A DNA stretch of 64,000 bases from an uncultured Candidatus Rokubacteria bacterium (GCA_963749975.1 CAVVOZ010000009.1:8923-72922), one strand, 5' to 3'. Shown: positions 3,145-56,552, counted from the first letter of the stretch. Notes: generated by a model not told the origin, from the letters alone. Program-made: numbers and translations.

Positions 3145-5188
3145 GTGTACCGGATCGGGATCGACGTCGGCGGTACCTTCACGGACCTGGTCGCCGTGGA
3201 CGAGCGCGGGCGCGTGACCCTCGCGAAGGCGGCCTCGACCCCGCAGGATCAGTCCCTCGGCGTCATGGAGGGGCTCGAGCCTCCTGGCCGCGGCGCTCGG
3301 CTGCGACCGGGCGGCCCTCCTCCGCGACACCGAGCGCATCGTCCACGGGACGACGGTCGCGACCAACGCCCTCCTCGAGCGCAAGGGGGCGCGGGTCGGG
3401 CTCCTCACGACCGCCGGCCACCGCGACGTGATCGAGATGCGGGAGGGGCTCAAGGACGACCGGTACAACCTCCGCATGGCGCCGCCGGAGCCGCTCGTGC
3501 CGCGCGCGCGGCGGCTCGGCATCCGCGAGCGCATGCGCGCCGACGGTCGAGTGGAGACGCCGCTCGATCCCCGCGCCCTCGACCGGGCCATCGCCGACCT
3601 CCGGCGCGCCGGCGTCGAGGCGGTGGCCGTCTGCTACCTGCACGCCTACCGGGACGCGCGGCACGAGCGGGCGACCGAGCGCGCCCTCCGCCGGGCGCTG
3701 CCGGGCGCCTACATCTCGCTCTCCTCGGAGGTCCTGCCCCAGATCAAGGAGTACGAGCGGGTCTGCACGACCGTCGTGAACGCCTACGTCGGACCCGCCC
3801 TCGCGCGCTACCTCTCGCGCCTGGCCGAGCGCCTCGTCCAGACCGGGTACGCGGGGCCCGTGCTCATCATCCAGTCCCACGGCGGCGTGGCCCCGGTTGC
3901 CGACGCCGTGCGCCTCGCCGCCGGGGCGGTCCTGTCCGGACCCGCGGGTGGCGTCGCGGGGAGCCGCTACTGCGCGCGCCTCCTCGGCGAGGGCAATCTG
4001 ATCCCCTTCGACATGGGCGGGACGAGCACCGACATCTCGCTCGTCGAGCACGGCGAGGCGCACCTCTCGCCGGACCGGGCGGTCGCGGGCCAGAAGGTGG
4101 CGCTCCCCAGCCTCGACATCGTGTCGATCGGCGCGGGCGGCGGGTCGATCGCCCGCGTGGACGCCGGCGGCACGCTCCGGGTCGGGCCGGAGAGCGCGGG
4201 CGCCGAGCCGGGCCCAGCGTGCTACGGCAAGGGCGGCACGGCCGCCACCGTGACGGACGCGAACCTGGTCCTGGGCTATCTCGATCCCGGGAACTTCCTG
4301 GGCGGCCGGACACAGCTCGACCTCGGTGCCGCGCAGCGGGCCGTGGACGCGATCGCGGAGCGGCTCGGCACCGAGCGGATGGTCGCGGCCGAGGGCATCC
4401 ACCGGGTCATCAACACGGTGATGGCCGAGGGCATCCGTGTCGTGTCGGTGCGGCGGGGCGTCGATCCCCGGCGGTTCGCGCTGCTCGCCTTCGGCGGGGC
4501 CGCCGCCCTCCACGTGACCGACGTGGCCCGGCGTCTCGAGATCGGGCGCGTCGTCGTGCCGCGGGTCGCGGCCGTGCTCTCGGCCTGGGGGATGCTGGCC
4601 ACCGATCTCCGGTACGAGGCGGTGCGGACCCACATCGGGGACGCGCGACGGGTCGGCGCGGCGCAGCTCCGCCAGGTGTTCGCCGCGATGGAGACCGAGG
4701 GGCGGCGGCGCCTGGCCGAGGCCTTCTCGGGGCCGGTGCGCATCCAGCGCGCCGTGGACATGCGCTACGGCGAGCAGATCTTCGAGGTCAACGTCTCGCT
4801 GGGGGACGTCGACCTCGAGGCGCCCGACGCGATGGCGGAGATCGTCGCGCGCTTCCACAAGCGCCACGAGGAGCTGTACACCTACGCGGCGCCGGACCAG
4901 GAAGTCGTCCTCGTCAACGCGCGCCTGGCGGTGGTGGGAGAGCTGCCGGCGTTGCCCGAGGAGCCCGCGCTTCCCGCGCGGCCGCCCGCGGCGCCCCGCA
5001 GCCGGCGGCGCGTCTACCTCGATGAGTGGCGCGAGGTGCCGGTCTACGATCTCGACGCGGTGGCTCCGGGGCAGGTGATCGCGGGGCCCGCGATCGTCGA
5101 GGCGGCGACGACGACGGCGCTCCTGCGCGCGGGCGAGCGAGCGACCGTGACGCCCCTCGGCTGGCTCGACATCCGCGTCGCGTCGTGA
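3145..5188 (+). CDS. hyuA: hydantoinase A/oxoprolinase family protein (HyuA-like); +1/-2 frameshift near 3278-3285
   Basis: GTG at 3145 gives VYRIGIDVGGTFTDLVAVDERGRV (the HyuA N-terminal motif) in frame 1. The rest (…LAAALGCDRAALLRDTERIVHGTTVATNALLERKG…MGGTSTDISLV…) is in frame 2, ORF 3428..5188. The frames meet at gggctcgagcctcctggcc. Confidence 0.75.
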
Positions 5189-5254
5189 CTCCACCGCGGG
5201 TCCTGTCGCCCGGCCCAGCTCCATGCGGTGGGCGCCCGATGAACGGAGGCTAGG

Positions 5255-6574
5255 ATGGGCACGAAGTTCGACGATCCCGGGTCCCAGTCCCGCGCCTTGT
5301 TCGAGCGGGCGCGGCAGGTCATCCCGGGCGGGACCTCCAAGGCGAACTTCCACGTCCACCCGCACCCGTTCTACCTCGCCGAGGGGCGCGGCTGCCGCGC
5401 GACCGACGTCGACGGGGTCGAGCGGATCGACGCGATCAACAACTTCACGGCGCTGATCCACGGTCACGCCTTCCCCCCGCTCGTCGACGCGGTCAGCCGA
5501 CAGCTCTCGCGCGGCACGGCCTTCGCTGCGTCCACGCCCGAGGAGGTCGCCCTCGCCGAGCTCCTCGTCGAGCGGGTGGCGGGTCTCGAGCGGGTCCGCT
5601 TCGGCAACTCCGGCACCGAGGCGGTGATGATGGCCATCAAGGCGGCGCGGGCCTACACGGGCCGCGACCGCATCGCCAAGTTCGAGGGGGCGTATCACGG
5701 CTACTACGACGACGTCCAGGTGAGCTACAGCTCGCGGCCCGACGACTGGGGGCCGGACGACGCGCCGGCGAGCGTGCCCTCCTCGGGCGGCGTGCCCAAG
5801 CACCGCGTGCTCGAGACGCTGGTCCTGCCCTGGAACGACCCCGACGCCTGCGAGCGGCTCGTGACGCGCCACGCTTCCGAGCTGGCGGCGGTGCTCGTGG
5901 ATCCCCTGGCGAACCGCATGGGGTTCATCCCGCCCGCGGACGGGTTCCTCGCGTTCCTCCGGCAGCTCACCCGGCAGCACGGGGTCCTCCTGGTCTTCGA
6001 CGAGATCATCTCGTTCCGCGTCGGCTACCATGGCGCCCAGGGCCGCTACGGCGGGGATCCGGATCTGACCGCCTTCGGCAAGATCATCGGGGGCGGGTTC
6101 CCCGTCGGCGCCACCGGCGGCCGCGCCGAGGTGATGGAGGTGTTCGACCCCGGAACGCGGGGACCGCGAATCGCCTCCGGAGGGACGTTCAGCGCCAACC
6201 CGGTCAGCATGACGGGCGGGCTCGCGACGATGCGCGCGATGACGCCGGCGGCGTTCGATCGCCTGGAGGCGCTCGGGGCCCGGCTGCGCGCGCGTCTCGG
6301 TGAGGTCTTCCGGGACGCCGGCGTGCCCGGCCAGGTGACCGGCGAGGGCTCTCTCTTCCGGCTCCTCTTCACCGACCGGCCGCTCCGCAGCTACCGCGAC
6401 CTCGACCAGGCGGCCGAGGCGCGCATGGAGCGGCTCTTCCTCGCGCTCCTCGATGCGGGCGTGCTGATCCACACGACGGGGCTCGGCTGCCTCTCGACCC
6501 CGATGGGCGACCGCGAGATCGAGGAGATCGCGGTCGCCGCCGAGCGGGCGCTCGGGGTCGTCGGCCGCGGCTGA
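5255..6574 (+). CDS. class III aminotransferase, glutamate-1-semialdehyde 2,1-aminomutase-like
   Basis: 439 aa: VIPGGTSKANF…GNSGTEAVMMAIKAARAYTGRDRIAKFEGAYHGY…DEIISFRVGYHGAQ…GKIIGGGFPVGATGGRAEVM…GGTFSANPVSMTGGLATM. HemL/AT-III family hallmarks including the PLP-Lys region. Confidence 0.85.
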   Translation: MGTKFDDPGSQSRALFERARQVIPGGTSKANFHVHPHPFYLAEGRGCRATDVDGVERIDAINNFTALIHGHAFPPLVDAVSRQLSRGTAFAASTPEEVALAELLVERVAGLERVRFGNSGTEAVMMAIKAARAYTGRDRIAKFEGAYHGYYDDVQVSYSSRPDDWGPDDAPASVPSSGGVPKHRVLETLVLPWNDPDACERLVTRHASELAAVLVDPLANRMGFIPPADGFLAFLRQLTRQHGVLLVFDEIISFRVGYHGAQGRYGGDPDLTAFGKIIGGGFPVGATGGRAEVMEVFDPGTRGPRIASGGTFSANPVSMTGGLATMRAMTPAAFDRLEALGARLRARLGEVFRDAGVPGQVTGEGSLFRLLFTDRPLRSYRDLDQAAEARMERLFLALLDAGVLIHTTGLGCLSTPMGDREIEEIAVAAERALGVVGRG

Positions 6575-46819: not shown

Positions 46820-47323
46820 ATGATGGCCAAGGCTGAGAACTCCTTCGACGTCGCGTGCAAGGTCGACCCGCAGGCAGTCACCGACGCGGTCCACCAGGCG
46901 ACCCGCGAGATCCAGACGCGCTACGACCTCAAGCAGACCAAGACCGAGCTCGGGCTGGAGAAGGACGCGATCACCGTCCACACGGACAACGACTACGTCC
47001 TGAAGCAGGTCCTCGACGTGCTCCAGTCGAAGCTCCACCGCCGGGGCGTGCCGCTGAAGGCGCTCACCTACGGGAAGGTCGAGCCCGCCGCGAGCGGCAC
47101 CGTGCGCCAGCGGATCGACGTCCAGCAGGGCATCCCGATGGAGAAGGCGAAGGAGATCGTCCGCCTGATCAAGGACACGAAGCTCAAGGTGCAGGCCCAG
47201 ATCCAGGAGGACCAGGTCCGGGTGTTCGGCAAGAACCGGGACGACCTCCAGGCGGTGATCAAGCTGCTCCGGGAGCAGGATCTGGGCATCGAGATGCAGT
47301 TCACGAACTACCGCTCGGAGTAG
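46820..47323 (+). CDS. yajQ: YajQ family cyclic-di-GMP-binding protein (UPF0234)
   Basis: [38 protein letters not shown]…[28 protein letters not shown]…. Confidence 0.8.
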
Positions 47324-47412
47324 CCGCCCGCGACGCCCTCCCGGCCGTGTGGTCGCTCCGCAGGCGACTCCGCTCGGCCGGGCTCGGCGGATCGACCGGC
47401 TATAATGCCGTC

Positions 47413-47745
47413 GTGGCAGAGCGAGCCGTCGCGCCCGCGGTGGACCCCGAGGTGCTGGCGATCGCCCGACAGGTCGCCGGGATCGTGCGACGAGTGCTGG
47501 GCGACCCCGCGTACCGCGTGTACCTCTTCGGCTCCTGGGTGGCGGGAGGAGCCGCTCCCCGCTCTGACATCGACATCGGCATCGAGGGCCCTGCGCCCGT
47601 ACCGCCGGCGGCGATGGTGACCATCCGCGACGCCTGTGAGGCCTTGCCCACGCTGCGCACCGTGGATCTGGTCGATCTCGCTCGGGTCGCTGCGGACTTC
47701 CGGGGGGGCCTTGTCGCGCGGTTGGTGGAGTCCGAGCCGTCGTGA
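47413..47745 (+). CDS. minimal nucleotidyltransferase (MNT) of an NTase/HEPN pair
   Basis: GTG 47413, immediately downstream of a perfect TATAAT at 47401-47406 (possibly leaderless). …RVYLFGSWVAGGAAPRSDIDIGIEG… is the GS…D.D NTase motif. Confidence 0.65.
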   Translation: MAERAVAPAVDPEVLAIARQVAGIVRRVLGDPAYRVYLFGSWVAGGAAPRSDIDIGIEGPAPVPPAAMVTIRDACEALPTLRTVDLVDLARVAADFRGGLVARLVESEPS

Positions 47746-48135
47746 CCGAGGGGAGCACCGCGCGTCGAATCGCCATCTTCTCCCAGGCCCTGGCTCGGTT
47801 GGAGCAGGCCTTGAGCATCCCCGAGGATCGCCATCGTCCGGGACGCCTGCATTCAGCGCTTCGAGTTCACGTTCGAGATGGCCTGGAAGGCCATCCAGGC
47901 GCACGCTCGGGTCCAGGGTATTCCGTGCGTGTCCCCTCGGGATTGCCTTCGCACGGCCTTTCGGCTCGGCCTCGTGGAGGACGACCCCGCGTGGATGGCG
48001 ATGGTGGAGGATCGAAATCGCACCACGCACACCTACGATGAGGCCAGCGCGCGTGCGATCTACGTCGCCCTGCCGGGCCACGCCCGGTTGCTGGCGACCC
48101 TCCTCGGCCGCTTGCGCGAACCGTCGGGGTCCTGA
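47742..48135 (+). CDS. HEPN / nucleotidyltransferase substrate-binding (HI0074-like) partner protein; frameshift ~47832
   Basis: GTG 47742 overlaps the MNT stop as GTGA. MTEGSTARRIAIFSQALARLEQALSIPEDR is in one frame. Then IVRDACIQRFEFTFEMAWKAIQAHARVQGI…WMAMVEDRNRTTHTYDEASARAIY (the R…H HEPN-like motif) is in the ORF 47878..48135 frame. Confidence 0.6.
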
Positions 48136-48483
48136 GCCCGGCTGGCCGAGACCTCGCCAGGACGCCGTGGAGGTGACAGCCGTGGGACGGCGCGTGCCCG
48201 GGCGAGAGACCACGGCTCCGAGTGCGATTAGGATCAGAAGGCGGTCTTTCTTTTCGCGGAGGTCGCGGTCGGTCGCCCCGCGGGCCACGCCGCGGAACGC
48301 CCGCATCGGCCGGTCGGGAACGAGGAAGATGACCCTCTCTTTGGCGAGCACGATGAGCTTCATCCCGGGCTGGAGCCGGAGTTGTTCGCGGACGGCTTCG
48401 TGGCAGCACGAGCCGGTACTTCCTGGACAGGGTCACCGTCTCCATCGTCTTACGAGGAGCGTAGTTCAAGCACGTTCCACCGC

Positions 48484-49110
48484 CTACTCGAGCCAGCGGG
48501 GGTCGCGGCCCGGGACCGCGCCGCCCGCGGTGGCGGCCGTCGGCCCGAGCCGGGCGAGGAAGTTCCCGAGGAGCGCCTTCCCCGACACGGTCAGGATCGA
48601 CTCCGGATGAAACTGGACGCCCTCGACCGGGAGCGTGCGGTGGCGAAGCCCCATGACCAGCCCGTCCTCGCTCTCCGCCGACACCTCGAGGCAGGCGGGC
48701 AGTCCCGCCCGACGCACCACGAGCGAGTGGTAGCGCGTCGCCTCGAAGGGGCTCGGCAGCCCCGCGAAGACCCCGCGTCCGTCGTGGTGGATCCAGGCCG
48801 TCTTGCCGTGGACGGGCACCGGCCCGCGCTCGACGATGCCGCCGAAGACCTCGCCGATGGCCTGATGCCCGAGACAGACGCCGAGGATCGGGACGCGCGC
48901 CGCGCACCGGCGGATGACCTCGACCGACACGCCCGCGTCGCGCGGGGCGCCCGGCCCCGGCGACACGACGATGCCCGCCGGCGCGAGCCGCTCGACCTCG
49001 TCCACCGTGATCGCGTCGTTCCGGTAGACCTCGAGCTCGGCGCCCAGCTCGCCGAGGTACTGGACGAGGTTGTAGGTGAAGGAGTCGTAGTTGTCGATCA
49101 TGAGCAGCAT
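48484..49110 (-). CDS. trpG: anthranilate synthase component II (glutamine amidotransferase)
   Basis: [23 protein letters not shown]…PGPGAP…[17 protein letters not shown]…GVQFHPESI carries the Cys-His-Glu GATase triad. Confidence 0.85.
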
Positions 49111-50612
49111 CACGGCCTCCCGCCGGTCCGGCCGGCCCGCTCGATCGCCGCCATGAGGGCCCGCGCCTTGGCGACGCATTCCTCCTGCTCCCGCTCCGGC
49201 ACCGAGTCGTAGACGACGCCGGCGCCGGCCTGGACGTAGGCGGTGCCCCGCCGCACGAGCACGGTACGGATCGTGATCGCCGTGTTGAGCGACCCGTCGA
49301 AGCCGAAGTAGCCGACGCACCCGGCGTAGGGCCCCCGGGCCACGGGCTCCAGGGCGTCGATGATCTCCATCGCCCGCACCTTCGGCGCCCCGCTCACGGT
49401 GCCGTGCGGGAACACCGCCTGGAGCACCTCCCACGGTGACCGGCCCGGGGCGAGGGTGCCCTCGACGTGGGAGACCAGGTGCATCACGTGGGAGTAGCGC
49501 TCGATCGACAGGAGCTCGCTCACCCGGACCGAGCCGTACCGCGCGACGCGGCCCACGTCGTTCCGGGTGAGGTCGACGAGCATCACGTGCTCGGCGCGCT
49601 CCTTCGGGTCGGCGAGGAGCGCGCGGGCGTGCGCCTCGTCCTCCTCGCGGTCGCGGCCGCGCGGGCGCGTGCCCGCGAGCGGCCGCATCTCGATCCGGCC
49701 GTCCTCGAGCCGGACGAGGCGCTCGGGGGACGAGCCCACGAGCGTCGCCCCGTCCCCGGCGTCGAGGAGGAACATGTAGGGCGAGGGATTCACCACGCGG
49801 AGGGCGCGGTAGATGGCGAGGGGATCGAGCCCGGGGACCGGCGTCGCGAAGCGCTGCGAGAGGATCACCTGGTAGATGTCGCCGGCGCGGATGTGCTCCT
49901 GGGCGCGCTCCACGGCCGCGCAGTAGGCGTCGGGGGCCCAGTTCGACCGGGGCGCCAGTGTCGTCGCCACCGCCGCCGGCTCGGGCGGCCGGGGACTCCG
50001 GAGCCGATCGAGGACCTGCTCGATCCGCTCGCGCGCTCGCGCCTCGGCCGCCTCGGCGCCCCCGTCCTCGTCGAGGAAGGCGTTCGCGACGATGCGCATC
50101 GTGTGGCGCCGGTGGTCGAACGCCACGATGGTGTCCATGAGCGCCAGGCGGAAGACCGGAAGGCCGAGGTCGTCGGGCGGCCGGCCGGGCAGTCGCTCCC
50201 ACAGGCGCACCGCGTCGTACGCGAGGTAGCCGAGGAAGCCGCCGGTGAAGGGCGGGAGCTCCGGATCCCGCGCCGCGCGGTAGCGCCCGAGATACCGCTC
50301 GAGCGTCTCGAGGGGGCGCCCCCGCTCGAGCAGGGTGCCGTCGGGCCGGAGGACCCGCACCTCCGCGCCGTCACACTCCAGCACGAGGCGGGGATCCCCG
50401 CCGAGGACCGAGAAGCGCGCGACCTGCTCTGGCCCTTCCACGCTCTCGAGGAGGAAGCTCGAGGGGAGGTCGCGGAGGCGCAGGTAGGCGGAGATGGGGG
50501 TCTCCAGGTCGGCGAGCAGCTCGCGCGAGACGGGCACCACGTTGGGAGCGCCCGCCCCCACGGCGCGCGCGCCCGGGGCGGAGGCCGACGGCAGCTCGGC
50601 ACGGGTCGACAT
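49110..50612 (-). CDS. trpE: anthranilate synthase component I
   Basis: ATG 50612 with AAGGAG 6 nt upstream. …LLESVEGP… (Trp-feedback LLES motif) …PYMFLLD…GTRPRG…[13 protein letters not shown]…GAPKVRAME…. The stop overlaps the trpG start (ATGA). Confidence 0.9.
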
Positions 50613-50640
50613 CGAGAGCTCCTTTCGCGTCACAGAAACC

Positions 50641-50682
50641 AAAAAAGCCGGGGCTCGCGGGGACCGTCCCGCTCACCTCGGC
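50641..50682 (-). terminator. putative trp attenuator terminator (GC-rich stem-loops followed by U6)
   Basis: Reverse-strand RNA …GCCGAGGUGAGCGGGACGGUCCCCGCGAGCCCCGGCUUUUUUGG. The outer stem GCCGAGG/CCCCGGC (one mismatch) encloses the hairpin GCGGG-ACGGUC-CCCGC. U6 lies 29 nt upstream of the trpE start codon. Confidence 0.45.
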
Positions 50683-50717
50683 TCTGACTGTCCTGCTCTC
50701 GCTACGTTCGGTGATTG

Positions 50718-50807
50718 CTACGCGGGTCCGGGTCCCTCCTGGGCGTACGGACGCCACCAGCGCCAAACCCACCAGTGCTGACCGGTGGCTCGAGGGGATC
50801 CCCGCAT
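50718..50807 (-). CDS. trpL: trp operon leader peptide (29 aa, 5 Trp codons in 7)
   Basis: Reverse strand: ATG CGG GGA TCC CCT CGA GCC ACC GGT CAG CAC TGG TGG GTT TGG CGC TGG TGG CGT CCG TAC GCC CAG GAG GGA CCC GGA CCC GCG TAG = MRGSPRATGQHWWVWRWWRPYAQEGPGPA*. GAGG lies before the ATG, and an in-frame ATG 12 nt upstream (50819) would give MLRGM…. Confidence 0.6.
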   Translation of the reverse strand: MRGSPRATGQHWWVWRWWRPYAQEGPGPA

Positions 50808-50829
50808 GCCTCGTAGCATCGTGCCGGCC

Positions 50830-50858
50830 ACGATAGTGGGCACGGCGCACCGTGTCAA
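50830..50858 (-). promoter_or_regulatory. sigma70-like promoter of the trpL-trpE-trpG operon
   Basis: Reverse strand TTGACA (50858-50853), 17-nt spacer, TATCGT (50835-50830). Predicted TSS ~50823, just upstream of the leader peptide. Confidence 0.4.
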
Positions 50859-50884
50859 GGGCGCCGTTCCAAGGCGGCGACGCC

Positions 50885-51337
50885 TCACCCCTGCTCCTCC
50901 TCCAACCGCTCCAAGTCCGCCAGGTCCCGGAGTCGCCCGGTCGCGCGCTTGTTCCGGATGAGTGTCTCGCGATCGAGGAAGGGGATATCGAGTGACCCGA
51001 CCCGATGCAGTACACGCGCGCCCCAGGCGCTCTCAAAGTCGACCCCGGTCAACCCCGTGAGGATGTCGATGCGACGGGGAGGCAGCCCGATCTGCAGGAC
51101 GATGCCGGGCCGGGTCAGATCGCCGGGCACCGCGCCGAGCGTCTCCATCGGGGCACCGAAGCGTCGCAGCGCCTCCCAGATCCGCTCGGCGTTGACCGCA
51201 TCCGCGAGGACCCAAATGTCGAGATCCCCCGTGGCGCGGACCACCCCGTGGACCGCCAGGGCGTGGGCGCCGACGACCAGGAAGCGCGCGCCGCTCGCCA
51301 GGAGGGCCGCGAGCATGTCCTGGAAGTCTTGGTTCAC
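50885..51337 (-). CDS. hypothetical protein (~150 aa), possible nucleotidyltransferase-like fold
   Basis: GTG 51337 with GGAGG 14 nt upstream. MNQDFQDMLAALLASGARFLVVGAHALAVHGVVRATGDLDIWV…DILTGLTGVDFESAWGAR…. The long upstream extension in ORF 50885..51541 is Arg/Pro-rich junk. Confidence 0.4.
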   Translation of the reverse strand: MNQDFQDMLAALLASGARFLVVGAHALAVHGVVRATGDLDIWVLADAVNAERIWEALRRFGAPMETLGAVPGDLTRPGIVLQIGLPPRRIDILTGLTGVDFESAWGARVLHRVGSLDIPFLDRETLIRNKRATGRLRDLADLERLEEEQG

Positions 51338-51772
51338 GCGGGGCTCGCGGGCCTCCGACGATCGAGCCGGCAGAGCCGGAGGGGAGTCGCGGTCCGCGGG
51401 TAATTGGGCATCGGCCGACCGCTCAGCGCCCAGGCCTCCACCGTGAGGGACCAGACCATCGCCAGGCGCTCTTCGGGCGTGGCCAATCGGTCGACGTGAT
51501 CCTGGGGCTCGGCCCCGAGGGCGACGAGCCGCACAGGCCACGTGCGGCGGGACGCCGCCCTGGACACCGTCCCCGCAGCCTCGCCTTCCGGCATGCCGGG
51601 ATTATAGTCCAGGGGACTCCTGAGAGCACCGATTCCGCGGTTTGCCCCGGCGCTATAATGGCGCCGCCTTCAGACCCGTCCGAGACTGCGGCGGACCAGG
51701 CGCGCCGAGCGAGGGCCCGCCGGAACGAGCGAGCGCAGCGGATCGGCGCGACGACGGGTCGCAGTCGGTCCG

Positions 51773-54571
<2,799 letters not shown>

Positions 54572-54616: not shown

Positions 54617-54982
54617 GTGGCCAAGCGCATCCTGGTCGTCGAGGATCACGAGGAGAATCGCCAGATCATGCGCGATCTCCTGACGCACGCGGGCTACGAG
54701 ATGGTCGAGGCCCACACCGGGGAGGACGGCGTGATCGCCGCCGGCCGCGAGCGCCCGGATCTCATCCTCATGGACATCCAGCTGCCGGGAATCGACGGCT
54801 ACGAGACGACCCGGCGAATCAAGGCGGACCCAGCGCTCCGCGCGATCCCGATCATCGCCGTCACGTCCTACGCGCTCTCCGGCGACGACCAGAAAGCCCT
54901 CGCCGCCGGCTGCGACGCGTACGTGACGAAGCCCTTCAGCCCGCGTGCCCTGCTGGGAAAGATCCGCGGGTACCTCGGATGA
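54617..54982 (+). CDS. response regulator, single receiver domain (CheY-like)
   Basis: GTG 54617 with AGGAG upstream. ILVVEDHEENRQIMRDLL…DLILMDIQLPGIDGYETTRRIK…IPIIAVTSYALSGD…AAGCDAYVTKP. Confidence 0.85.
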   Translation: MAKRILVVEDHEENRQIMRDLLTHAGYEMVEAHTGEDGVIAAGRERPDLILMDIQLPGIDGYETTRRIKADPALRAIPIIAVTSYALSGDDQKALAAGCDAYVTKPFSPRALLGKIRGYLG

Positions 54983-54986
54983 CGCG

Positions 54987-56101
54987 GTGAGGACGCCGCC
55001 GCGCCTCCTGATCGCGGACGACAACCCGCTCAACGTCGACATCCTCCGGACCCGACTCGCCACCCAGGGCTACGAGGTGCTCACGGCGAGCGATGGCGAA
55101 GCGGCGCTGGCACTCGCGCGCGCGCAGCAGCCCGATCTCCTCCTCCTCGACATCATGATGCCGGGGCTCGATGGGCTCGAGGTGTGCCGCCGCCTGAAGG
55201 GCGACCCCACGCTCCCGTTCATGCCGGTCATTCTCGTCACCGCCAAGGCCGACTCGCGGGACGTCGTGGCCGGCCTCGACGCGGGCGCGGACGAGTACCT
55301 GACGAAGCCGGTGGACCAGGCGGCGCTGGTCTCGCGGGTGAAGTCCATGCTCCGGATCAAGGCGCTCCACGACACGGTCGAGGAGCAGGCGTCGGCCCTC
55401 GGCGAGTGGAACCGCACCCTCGAGAGCCGCGTGCGCCAGCAGGTCGAGGAGCTCGAGCGGCTGGGGCGGCTGAAGCGCTTCTTCTCGCCGCAGCTCGCCG
55501 ACGCGATCGTCCAGGGCGGCGCCGAGGATCCTCTCCGGTCGCACCGGCGCGAGGTGACGGTGGTCTTCGCCGACTTGCGGGGGTTCACGGCCTTCGCCGA
55601 GGCGGCCGAGCCCGAGGAGGTCATGGCGGTCCTCCGCGAGTACCACGGCGAGATGGGCCGGCTCATCCTGGCTCACGAGGGCACGCTCGAGCGGTTCACG
55701 GGCGACGGGCTCATGGTGTTCTTCAACGATCCGATTCCCGTGCCCGACGCCCCGGAGCGCGCGGTGCGCATGGCGGTCGCCATGCGGGATCGCGTCGCCG
55801 AGCTCGCCGCGAAGTGGCGCCGCGAGGGGTACGAGCTCGACCTCGGCCTCGGCATCGCCCGGGGCTACGCGACGCTCGGCGCGATCGGCTTCGAGGGACG
55901 CTGGGACTACGCGGCGCTCGGGACGGTGACCAACCTGGCGGCGCGGCTCTGCGGCGAGGCCCGACCGGGCCAGATCCTCGTCGCCCACCGTGTCCTGGCG
56001 GCGCTGGACGAGCTGGTGGACGTGGAGCCGCTGGGGGAGGTCGCCCTCAAGGGCTTCCTCCGCCCGTCCCCGTCTTCAGCGTGCTGCGACTGCGGTCGTA
56101 G
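54987..56101 (+). CDS. response-regulator receiver / class III adenylate-guanylate cyclase fusion; 1-bp deletion frameshift ~56063
   Basis: GTG 54987. Receiver (LLIADDNPLNVDILRTRL…LLLLDIMMPGLDG…ILVTAKAD…DEYLTKP), coiled-coil linker, then cyclase homology domain (REVTVVFADLRGFT…FTGDGLMVFFN…GIARGYATLGAIGFEGRWDYAALGTVTNLAARL). The true C-terminus …GFLRPVPVFSVLRLRS* is in the ORF 55184..56101 frame. Confidence 0.8.
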
Positions 56102-56552
56102 GGTCTTCCGGATCGTGGGACCGGCCCGGTGCCCTTGGCGTGCGAGCGCCCGTCCGGAGCGCTCGCGCCACGGCGAGCTTCTGGGGGGGCCGTGGTCCGC
56201 GAGGTCGAGCTCGCCTCGTAGAACGTGCCGAGATGCCGGGAGTCAACCATCAGGACGCAGTGCGAGCCCTGGAGACGGCAGGCTAACGAATCGTCCGGCA
56301 GGGGAAGCACATCGTGAGAGCGACGGGGTCCGGATCGTGACCATTCCAAGGACAGGTCGATTCTTCACCTGCTGACGAGGTTACCCCGGACCGGTCGGAC
56401 AGTGCGACGCCCACGGGCGCTCGACGGCCCAGCCCACGCAGCTCTTCGCGGGACGCCTGTCCGGTCCGCCGGCCACGGGGGGTGGAGACTTCGGGTCCCC
56501 AACCCTGGCCTCTTAGGCGACGCTAACGGGGGCTCGCGGGCTTTCCCCGACT

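Follow-up and report, generated by a model that had tools for sequence, protein, structure and literature searches.

The trpE leader described here lies in a 64,000-nucleotide (64-kb) stretch of DNA from an uncultured Candidatus Rokubacteria bacterium (GCA_963749975.1 CAVVOZ010000009.1:8923-72922), which was analysed at its full length and is called the window. The G+C content of the window is 72.5%. On the - strand, a promoter is followed by a short open reading frame (ORF) rich in tryptophan (Trp) codons, a hairpin with a run of six T residues, a Shine-Dalgarno sequence, trpE and then trpG (Table 1). Behind the leader the window holds only these two trp genes, which by their Pfam matches participate in making the amino acid that the leader would sense. 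The start codon of trpG overlaps the stop codon of trpE (TGATG). As judged from the sequence and its comparison with relatives, this arrangement is very probably a trpL-type transcription attenuator, in which ribosomes would control the expression of trpE-trpG.

Table 1 Coordinates of the trpE-trpG locus and its leader in the window
Feature	Position	Strand	Evidence or remarks
-35 hexamer TTGACA	50853..50858	-	TTGAC(A) in 20/20 homologous leaders
-10 hexamer TATCGT	50830..50835	-	Family consensus TAnnnT; spacer of 17 nucleotides (nt)
Transcription start, inferred (conserved A, 7-8 nt after the -10 hexamer)	50822	-	Promoter geometry; 5' untranslated region (UTR) of 3 nt
Leader ORF (trpL-like), 33 codons + TAG, MLRGMRGSPRATGQHWWVWRWWRPYAQEGPGPA*	50718..50819	-	Frame, Trp cluster and stop conserved in 20 loci
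Trp-codon cluster TGG TGG GTT TGG CGC TGG TGG, codons 16-22, candidate sensing site	50754..50774	-	Core WxWRWW conserved
Segment 1, CGUCCGUACGCC, just 3' of the last Trp codon	50742..50753	-	Predicted pairing with segment 2
Segment 2, GGGACCCGGACCCGC, last leader codons, 5' half of the predicted antiterminator	50722..50736	-	Partial-transcript folds
Segment 3, GCGGGACGGUCCC, part of the terminator (upper 5' arm, loop, start of 3' arm)	50660..50672	-	Predicted pairing with segment 2
Intrinsic terminator hairpin, AGCCGAGGUGAGCGGG-ACGGUC-CCCGCGAGCCCCGGCU	50646..50683	-	-25.0 kcal/mol, imperfect stem
T6 tract, then GGTTTC	50641..50646	-	T-rich tails also in relatives
trpE Shine-Dalgarno AAAGGAG	50619..50625	-	6 nt 5' of the trpE ATG (50612)
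trpE, anthranilate synthase component I, 500 amino acids (aa)	49110..50612	-	Pfam PF00425 3.6e-95, PF04715 1.9e-38
trpG, glutamine amidotransferase component II	48484..49110	-	Pfam PF00117 9.2e-59

Collection of homologous leaders

A search with TrpE retrieved many metagenomic proteins that are 72-93% identical, and the named members of the clusters at 84% and 78% identity are labelled 'Methylomirabilota bacterium', which makes this phylum the most likely source of the window. Upstream DNA was obtained by two routes. Exact-protein look-ups yielded seven usable loci, and an eighth (P0009) gave gene context only. A metagenome scan with a pattern that covered the DNA from the last Trp codons to the terminator's 5' arm yielded 14 loci, of which L094 was dropped as a chance match and L096 as a duplicate of L091. 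The resulting comparison set consists of 20 distinct leaders, namely that of the window and those of 19 other metagenomic loci, with TrpE approximately 72-93% identical.

The promoter, the ATG, the in-frame Trp-rich ORF, the terminator and trpE followed by trpG are common to all 20. Genes located 5' of the leader vary by locus and encode an aldehyde dehydrogenase, a GAF sensor, a methyltransferase, a short-chain dehydrogenase or a DAO oxidase. Conservation starts at the -35 hexamer, and the DNA 5' of this hexamer is unrelated between loci. In TrpE relatives of approximately 60% identity (Armatimonadota and others), trpE is found inside an aroF-tyrA-trpE-G-D-C-trpS operon and lacks an intergenic leader. 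The element is therefore confined to the clade (TrpE at least 72% identical) in which trpEG stands alone.

Promoter and leader reading frame

The preliminary description of this DNA had named a sigma-70-like promoter, TTGACA-17-TATCGT, and this sequence is indeed present on the - strand as the sole sigma-70-like match in 2.5 kb (0.0 matches in shuffled sequences). Its spacer length is retained in all relatives (17-18 nt). The same 2.5-kb scan revealed no second promoter before trpE, nor is there space for one. The leader ATG sits 9-11 nt past the -10 hexamer in all 20 loci, and 10 nt past it in the window. A conserved A also occurs 7-8 nt past this hexamer, which leaves a 5' UTR of hardly more than 3-4 nt.

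The leader ORF was first described as comprising 29 codons. The ORF is present and conserved, but the ATG at 50807 from which that length was counted is the second in-frame ATG; the start conserved in relatives is the ATG at 50819, and the stop is a TAG at 50720-50718. In 12 of the 20 leaders no in-frame start other than this 5'-proximal ATG precedes the Trp codons, and no correctly spaced Shine-Dalgarno sequence for an alternative start was found in any of the 20. The ATG at 50819 itself lacks a Shine-Dalgarno sequence, and translation from it would need leaderless initiation. Given the promoter geometry, the leader peptide is best read as being translated from an effectively leaderless mRNA.

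Across the 20 loci the ORF comprises 24-38 codons, of which three to six specify Trp, and it has the core WxWRWW. As would be expected of a Trp-rich ORF that is conserved in orthologous leaders, which the preliminary description had proposed looking for, the ORF is in frame in every leader. The codons 5' of the Trp cluster diverge in sequence and number (7-18), and the frame nevertheless stays open throughout. At the C-terminus of the peptide, EG..(P/S/T)(A/V) is fairly conserved. The stop follows the last Trp codon at a distance of exactly 33 nt in 17 of the 20 leaders.

The five Trp codons in seven that had been reported are present at 50774-50754, and are the only such run across the six frames of the window. 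A 5-of-7 TGG run arose in none of 200 dinucleotide-preserving shuffles. Long spurious ORFs are abundant in DNA of 72.5% G+C, and it is conceivable that the ORF arose by chance in GC-rich sequence and that the hairpin is the terminator of an upstream transcript. This explanation is extremely improbable and is effectively refuted by the comparison: beyond the rarity of the Trp run in the window and in shuffles, the frame, the cluster and the stop are conserved in 20 loci with unrelated upstream genes, and a conserved promoter lies between the upstream gene and the ORF.

The second-densest TGG run of the window is found at 56005-56034 (+) and reads WTSWWTWSRW. It is off-frame within a CTG-rich stretch of a response-regulator/adenylate-cyclase-like ORF (54945-56375), and was rejected as a leader, being a by-product of codon usage. 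Among the relatives, the leader of L100 has a 1-nt deletion just 3' of the Trp cluster, and its ORF passes the usual stop and reaches 38 codons. This frameshift either reflects an assembly error or is natural variation, in which case the positioning of ribosomes would be altered.

Terminator

The hairpin begins after a 35-nt spacer that follows the leader stop codon. A hairpin and U6 tract before trpE had been described previously, and both are present, but the tract is 15 nt, rather than 29 nt, from the Shine-Dalgarno sequence; its end is 28 nt before the trpE ATG. A simple terminator scanner did not detect the hairpin at 50683-50646 because the stem contains internal mismatches. Terminator hairpins of -21 to -31 kcal/mol with T-rich tails occur in all 20 leaders, although the tail of L085 is weak and interrupted. 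The consensus structure that RNAalifold predicts for the leader alignment is this terminator. For its 14 pairs, 95.2% of alignment cells are standard pairs, as compared with 34-50% when the 3' partners are slid.

T-box RNAs, TRAP-like proteins and riboswitches are other ways in which trp genes are controlled at a leader terminator. By analogy, the hairpin might be governed by a factor other than the ribosome, such as uncharged tRNA-Trp bound by a T-box, a TRAP-like protein or a riboswitch ligand. This is very unlikely for the present leaders. An Rfam cmscan of 49500-52000 at E <= 10 returned three chance matches and no leader family (including Trp_leader, RF00513) or T-box. A TRAP-type array needs 9-11 (G/U)AG repeats spaced by 2-3 nt, whereas at most three consecutive repeats occur in 50600-50830. 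In addition, a binding site would be expected between the stop codon and the terminator, and this is the least conserved part of the leader.

Three relatives have an extra GC-rich insert between the T-tract and the trpE Shine-Dalgarno sequence, which is approximately 169 nt long in L090 and approximately 80 nt in L081 and L091; the window has no such insert. It contains internal repeat units, for example GGCCGTAGGCCCGAGGCGCGCCG, which is found twice in L090, and looks like a small repetitive extragenic element.

A predicted antiterminator

Attenuation requires a structure that competes with the terminator, and folding the leader for mutually exclusive pairings had been proposed at the outset. 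Partial transcripts that mimic a ribosome stalled at the last Trp codon were folded, starting 10 nt past that codon and ending three bases into the 3' arm of the terminator. An antiterminator located at the end of the ORF, always with the same architecture, is the minimum-free-energy structure of this partial transcript in 18 of the 20 leaders. In the window it is predicted to comprise two helices, GGGACC (50736-50731) with GGUCCC (50665-50660) and CCCGC (50726-50722) with GCGGG (50672-50668), and has a predicted energy of -27.6 kcal/mol versus -25.0 for the terminator. Because it uses the upper 5' arm of the terminator, its loop and the first bases of its 3' arm, the two structures are mutually exclusive.

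The duplex between segments 2 and 3 ranks in the top 1.1% of natural 30-nt windows in the analysed locus, with trpE of the same locus as background, and in the top 5% in 14 of 19 loci. In the alignment, 91.9% of antiterminator cells can pair, versus 33-55% when the partners are slid. A single compensatory change, from A-U to G-C, is found in L086 and L095. In the MAFFT alignment, the second clade is one column out of register in segment 2. Across clades the GGGACC motif is kept despite a shifted codon register, such that GAG GGA CCC in some leaders corresponds to GAG GGG ACC or GGG GCC in others, and the residue encoded there is P, T or A. That the motif is retained while the codons differ speaks for the RNA, rather than the peptide, being the target of selection.

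The same observation bears on whether the Trp-rich ORF might instead be a free-standing gene for a small protein that has its own terminator, with trpE-trpG expressed by constitutive leak-through or driven otherwise, so that the peptide would matter and ribosome stalling would not. The fairly conserved core WxWRWW and C-terminal residues would suit such a gene, and the peptide peTrpL of Sinorhizobium meliloti does have a function in trans (PMC7298713). However, the ORF is always immediately 5' of trpE, the T-tract ends just 28 nt before the trpE ATG and no second promoter is present, and the enrichment in Trp matches the regulated pathway. Moreover, the peptide is not conserved at its N-terminus, and at its C-terminus the RNA motif is preserved although the codons vary. 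A small-protein gene is consequently an improbable explanation.

Several observations weigh against trpL-type attenuation or against parts of the model. Of 500 shuffles, 24 reach the covariation score of the antiterminator, which is therefore not decisive; covariation is weak in part because 13 leaders were retrieved with a pattern that fixes part of segment 3. The terminator pairs have no double-sided changes on the alignment. When segment 2 is shuffled by mononucleotides, z is only -0.3 to -2.3 in this DNA of 72.5% G+C. Two leaders, L085 and L102, fold another alternative structure. The hairpin between segments 1 and 2, which most sequences are predicted to form, does not exceed background windows in stability. 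Leaderless initiation is read from promoter geometry only. Finally, when full-length transcripts are folded at equilibrium with the stalled ribosome as a mask, the terminator is still the best structure in most sequences, and the model therefore needs a kinetic, co-transcriptional competition. Overall, the predicted antiterminator pairing is conserved, with covariation that is too sparse to be decisive as proof.

Proposed mechanism

The architecture had been likened to the ribosome-mediated attenuator of Escherichia coli trpL, and the comparison of 20 loci supports this interpretation. We infer the start site, the ribosome positions and the response to Trp from the anatomy of the leader. Transcription would begin approximately 3 nt before the ATG at 50819, and the leader ORF would be read as an effectively leaderless mRNA. 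When Trp is plentiful, charged tRNA-Trp would be abundant, so that the ribosome clears the five Trp codons and reaches the TAG. Because the stop codon abuts segment 2, the terminating ribosome would cover this segment, which after release could re-pair with segment 1. The terminator with its T6 tract would then form, and transcription would stop short of trpE.

When Trp is scarce, the ribosome would stall within the WWxWxWW cluster, at least 17 nt 5' of segment 2. Since the last Trp codon is 17 nt 5' of segment 2, a ribosome stalled there would cover segment 1 and leave segment 2 free. Segment 2 could pair with segment 3 as soon as the latter is made, the upper stem of the terminator would be lost, and RNA polymerase would read through into trpE-trpG. 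The conserved geometry fits such a switch based on ribosome position.

Functions beyond attenuation in cis may also be considered, by analogy with other leaders. The terminated leader RNA (approximately 180 nt), the Trp-rich peptide, or both might act in trans and coordinate unlinked trp genes, in the manner of rnTrpL and peTrpL of S. meliloti. Alternatively, a TnaC-like stall of the nascent peptide at the stop codon might sense free tryptophan and reinforce termination. The strictly conserved 11-codon spacing from Trp to stop and the Gly/Pro-rich C-terminus are a possible hint of a stall at the stop codon. Yet the shift of the GGGACC register relative to the codons suggests that the C-terminal conservation is mostly at the level of RNA. 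Either function is unlikely.

No trpD, trpC or trpB gene is present in the 64-kb window, in line with the preliminary description, which had noted that only trpE and trpG are linked. A tblastn search of the window with TrpD and TrpC of L104 and L106 and with the TrpS-like gene of L082 gave no match, as did motif scans of the window for TrpB, TrpC and TrpD. It is thus a reasonable inference from these 64 kb that the trp regulon is split and that attenuation acts at anthranilate synthase only, as had been proposed; the same layout is documented in S. meliloti.

Relation to known attenuators

The closest parallel is trpL/rnTrpL of S. meliloti, in which only trpE(G) is attenuated, from a leaderless trpL (PMC6614838, PMC7298713). 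As there (PMC6614838, PMC7298713), the present locus would combine split trp genes with a Trp leader-peptide attenuator on the anthranilate synthase unit only, and in both the leader ORF is at or near the 5' end of the transcript (here as judged from the promoter) and a terminator with a T-run is located 5' of trpE. The two share no sequence homology. The peptide of the window has 33 aa and five Trp residues (WWxWRWW), versus 14 aa and WWW in S. meliloti; trpE and trpG are separate, overlapping genes rather than a fusion; and the phylum is Methylomirabilota rather than Alphaproteobacteria. Trans-acting roles of the leader RNA and peptide have been shown in S. meliloti, whereas the present leader is known from its sequence.

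Like E. coli trpL in the Yanofsky model, the leader has Trp codons, a terminator and a predicted antiterminator between which ribosome position would decide. In contrast to E. coli trpL, it does not match the Rfam family Trp_leader (RF00513). In E. coli, the leader ORF has a Shine-Dalgarno sequence and two Trp codons, the 1:2 pause hairpin is well defined, and the attenuator controls the whole of trpEDCBA together with TrpR. The present leader is probably leaderless, has five Trp codons and a 1:2 hairpin with weak support, and precedes trpEG only.

Leader peptides have also been described in two other lineages. The trpEGD leader peptide of Deinococcus deserti is made from a leaderless transcript, whose 5' end coincides with a start codon located 5' of trpE or lies no more than a few nt away from it (PMC4007540); the same would hold here. 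The D. deserti start was mapped (-1), whereas that of the window is predicted (approximately -3), and the genes are trpEGD rather than trpEG. Corynebacterium glutamicum, which likewise has a high G+C content, has a small Trp leader peptide (trpL) in the 5' region of trpE that is thought to act by attenuation (PMC3890552). It controls the full trp operon, and its sequences are unrelated to those of the window.

Variation among relatives

In L082, whose TrpE is 81% identical, a class-I tRNA synthetase gene (5132-5842) directly follows trpG and overlaps it. The N-terminus of its product, SGIQPSGDVHLGNYLGA, resembles tryptophanyl-tRNA synthetase. The gene call is short (236 aa) and possibly frameshifted. 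This gene may be cotranscribed under the same Trp attenuator. Another protein, P0122 (684 aa, on a 286-kb contig), belongs to the cluster of P0058, which contains the partial TrpE of highest identity (94%). Either TrpE and TrpG are fused in P0122, or its gene call extends upstream across the leader.

A scan of contigs with TrpE, in which conserved motifs dominated the matches, gave only TrpE proteins of 45-55% identity from many phyla, and these were used for a survey of Trp-rich upstream ORFs. At several distant trpE loci the gene is preceded by an unrelated Trp-rich ORF, such as MIKTLNLNNWWWWNLTGRLIRR, with one or two clean terminators behind it. For Smithella and further Syntrophales (L004, L027 and L028), the cores of these ORFs are NNWWWWNL, NGWWWWAL and SWWWQN. 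A metagenome-assembled genome labelled 'delta proteobacterium' (L037) and Binataceae (L039 and L049) have cores such as GWWRWH and WATWRWN. Trp leader-peptide attenuation of trpE appears to be widespread in uncultured lineages.

Genes downstream of trpEG

The region 3' of trpEG first contains what remains of a toxin-antitoxin pair, followed by yajQ and lolA in convergent orientation. Downstream of trpG on the - strand (47300-48480 of the window) is an AbrB/VapB-like antitoxin reading frame (METVTLSRKYRLVLP...) that resumes in another frame (...EAVREQLRLQPGMKLIVLAKERVIFLVPDRPMRAFRGVARGATDRDLREKKDRL), and the gene is therefore frameshifted. The sequence beyond it resembles a broken toxin. A Pfam search of the long ORFs as listed in this region gave no match. 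In a close relative, PIN and MazE genes occupy the equivalent position. The C-terminal part of an ORF at 46855-47745 (+), which adjoins these remnants and as listed is probably too long, matches nucleotidyltransferase domains (Polbeta/NTP_transf_2, E of approximately 1e-5). It may be another component of the toxin-antitoxin type (MNT-like).

Conclusions

The mechanism is already known, as is the layout in which a leaderless leader precedes trpE(G) only (S. meliloti, D. deserti), and the locus leaves the understanding of attenuation itself unchanged. What is new is the phylum, the sequence family, which is not in Rfam, and the unusually Trp-dense and longer leader peptide. Searchable literature on Rokubacteria or Methylomirabilota and a tryptophan attenuator contained nothing relevant. 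The alignment could be used as the seed of an RNA family and for annotating a small ORF that gene callers miss. The leader might also be read in metatranscriptomes as an internal reporter that tryptophan is limiting for these organisms. With this locus, Methylomirabilota (Rokubacteria-like soil bacteria) gain a well-supported example of a Trp leader-peptide attenuator, together with a clean, conserved and probably leaderless leader ORF outside Proteobacteria, Actinobacteria and Deinococcus.

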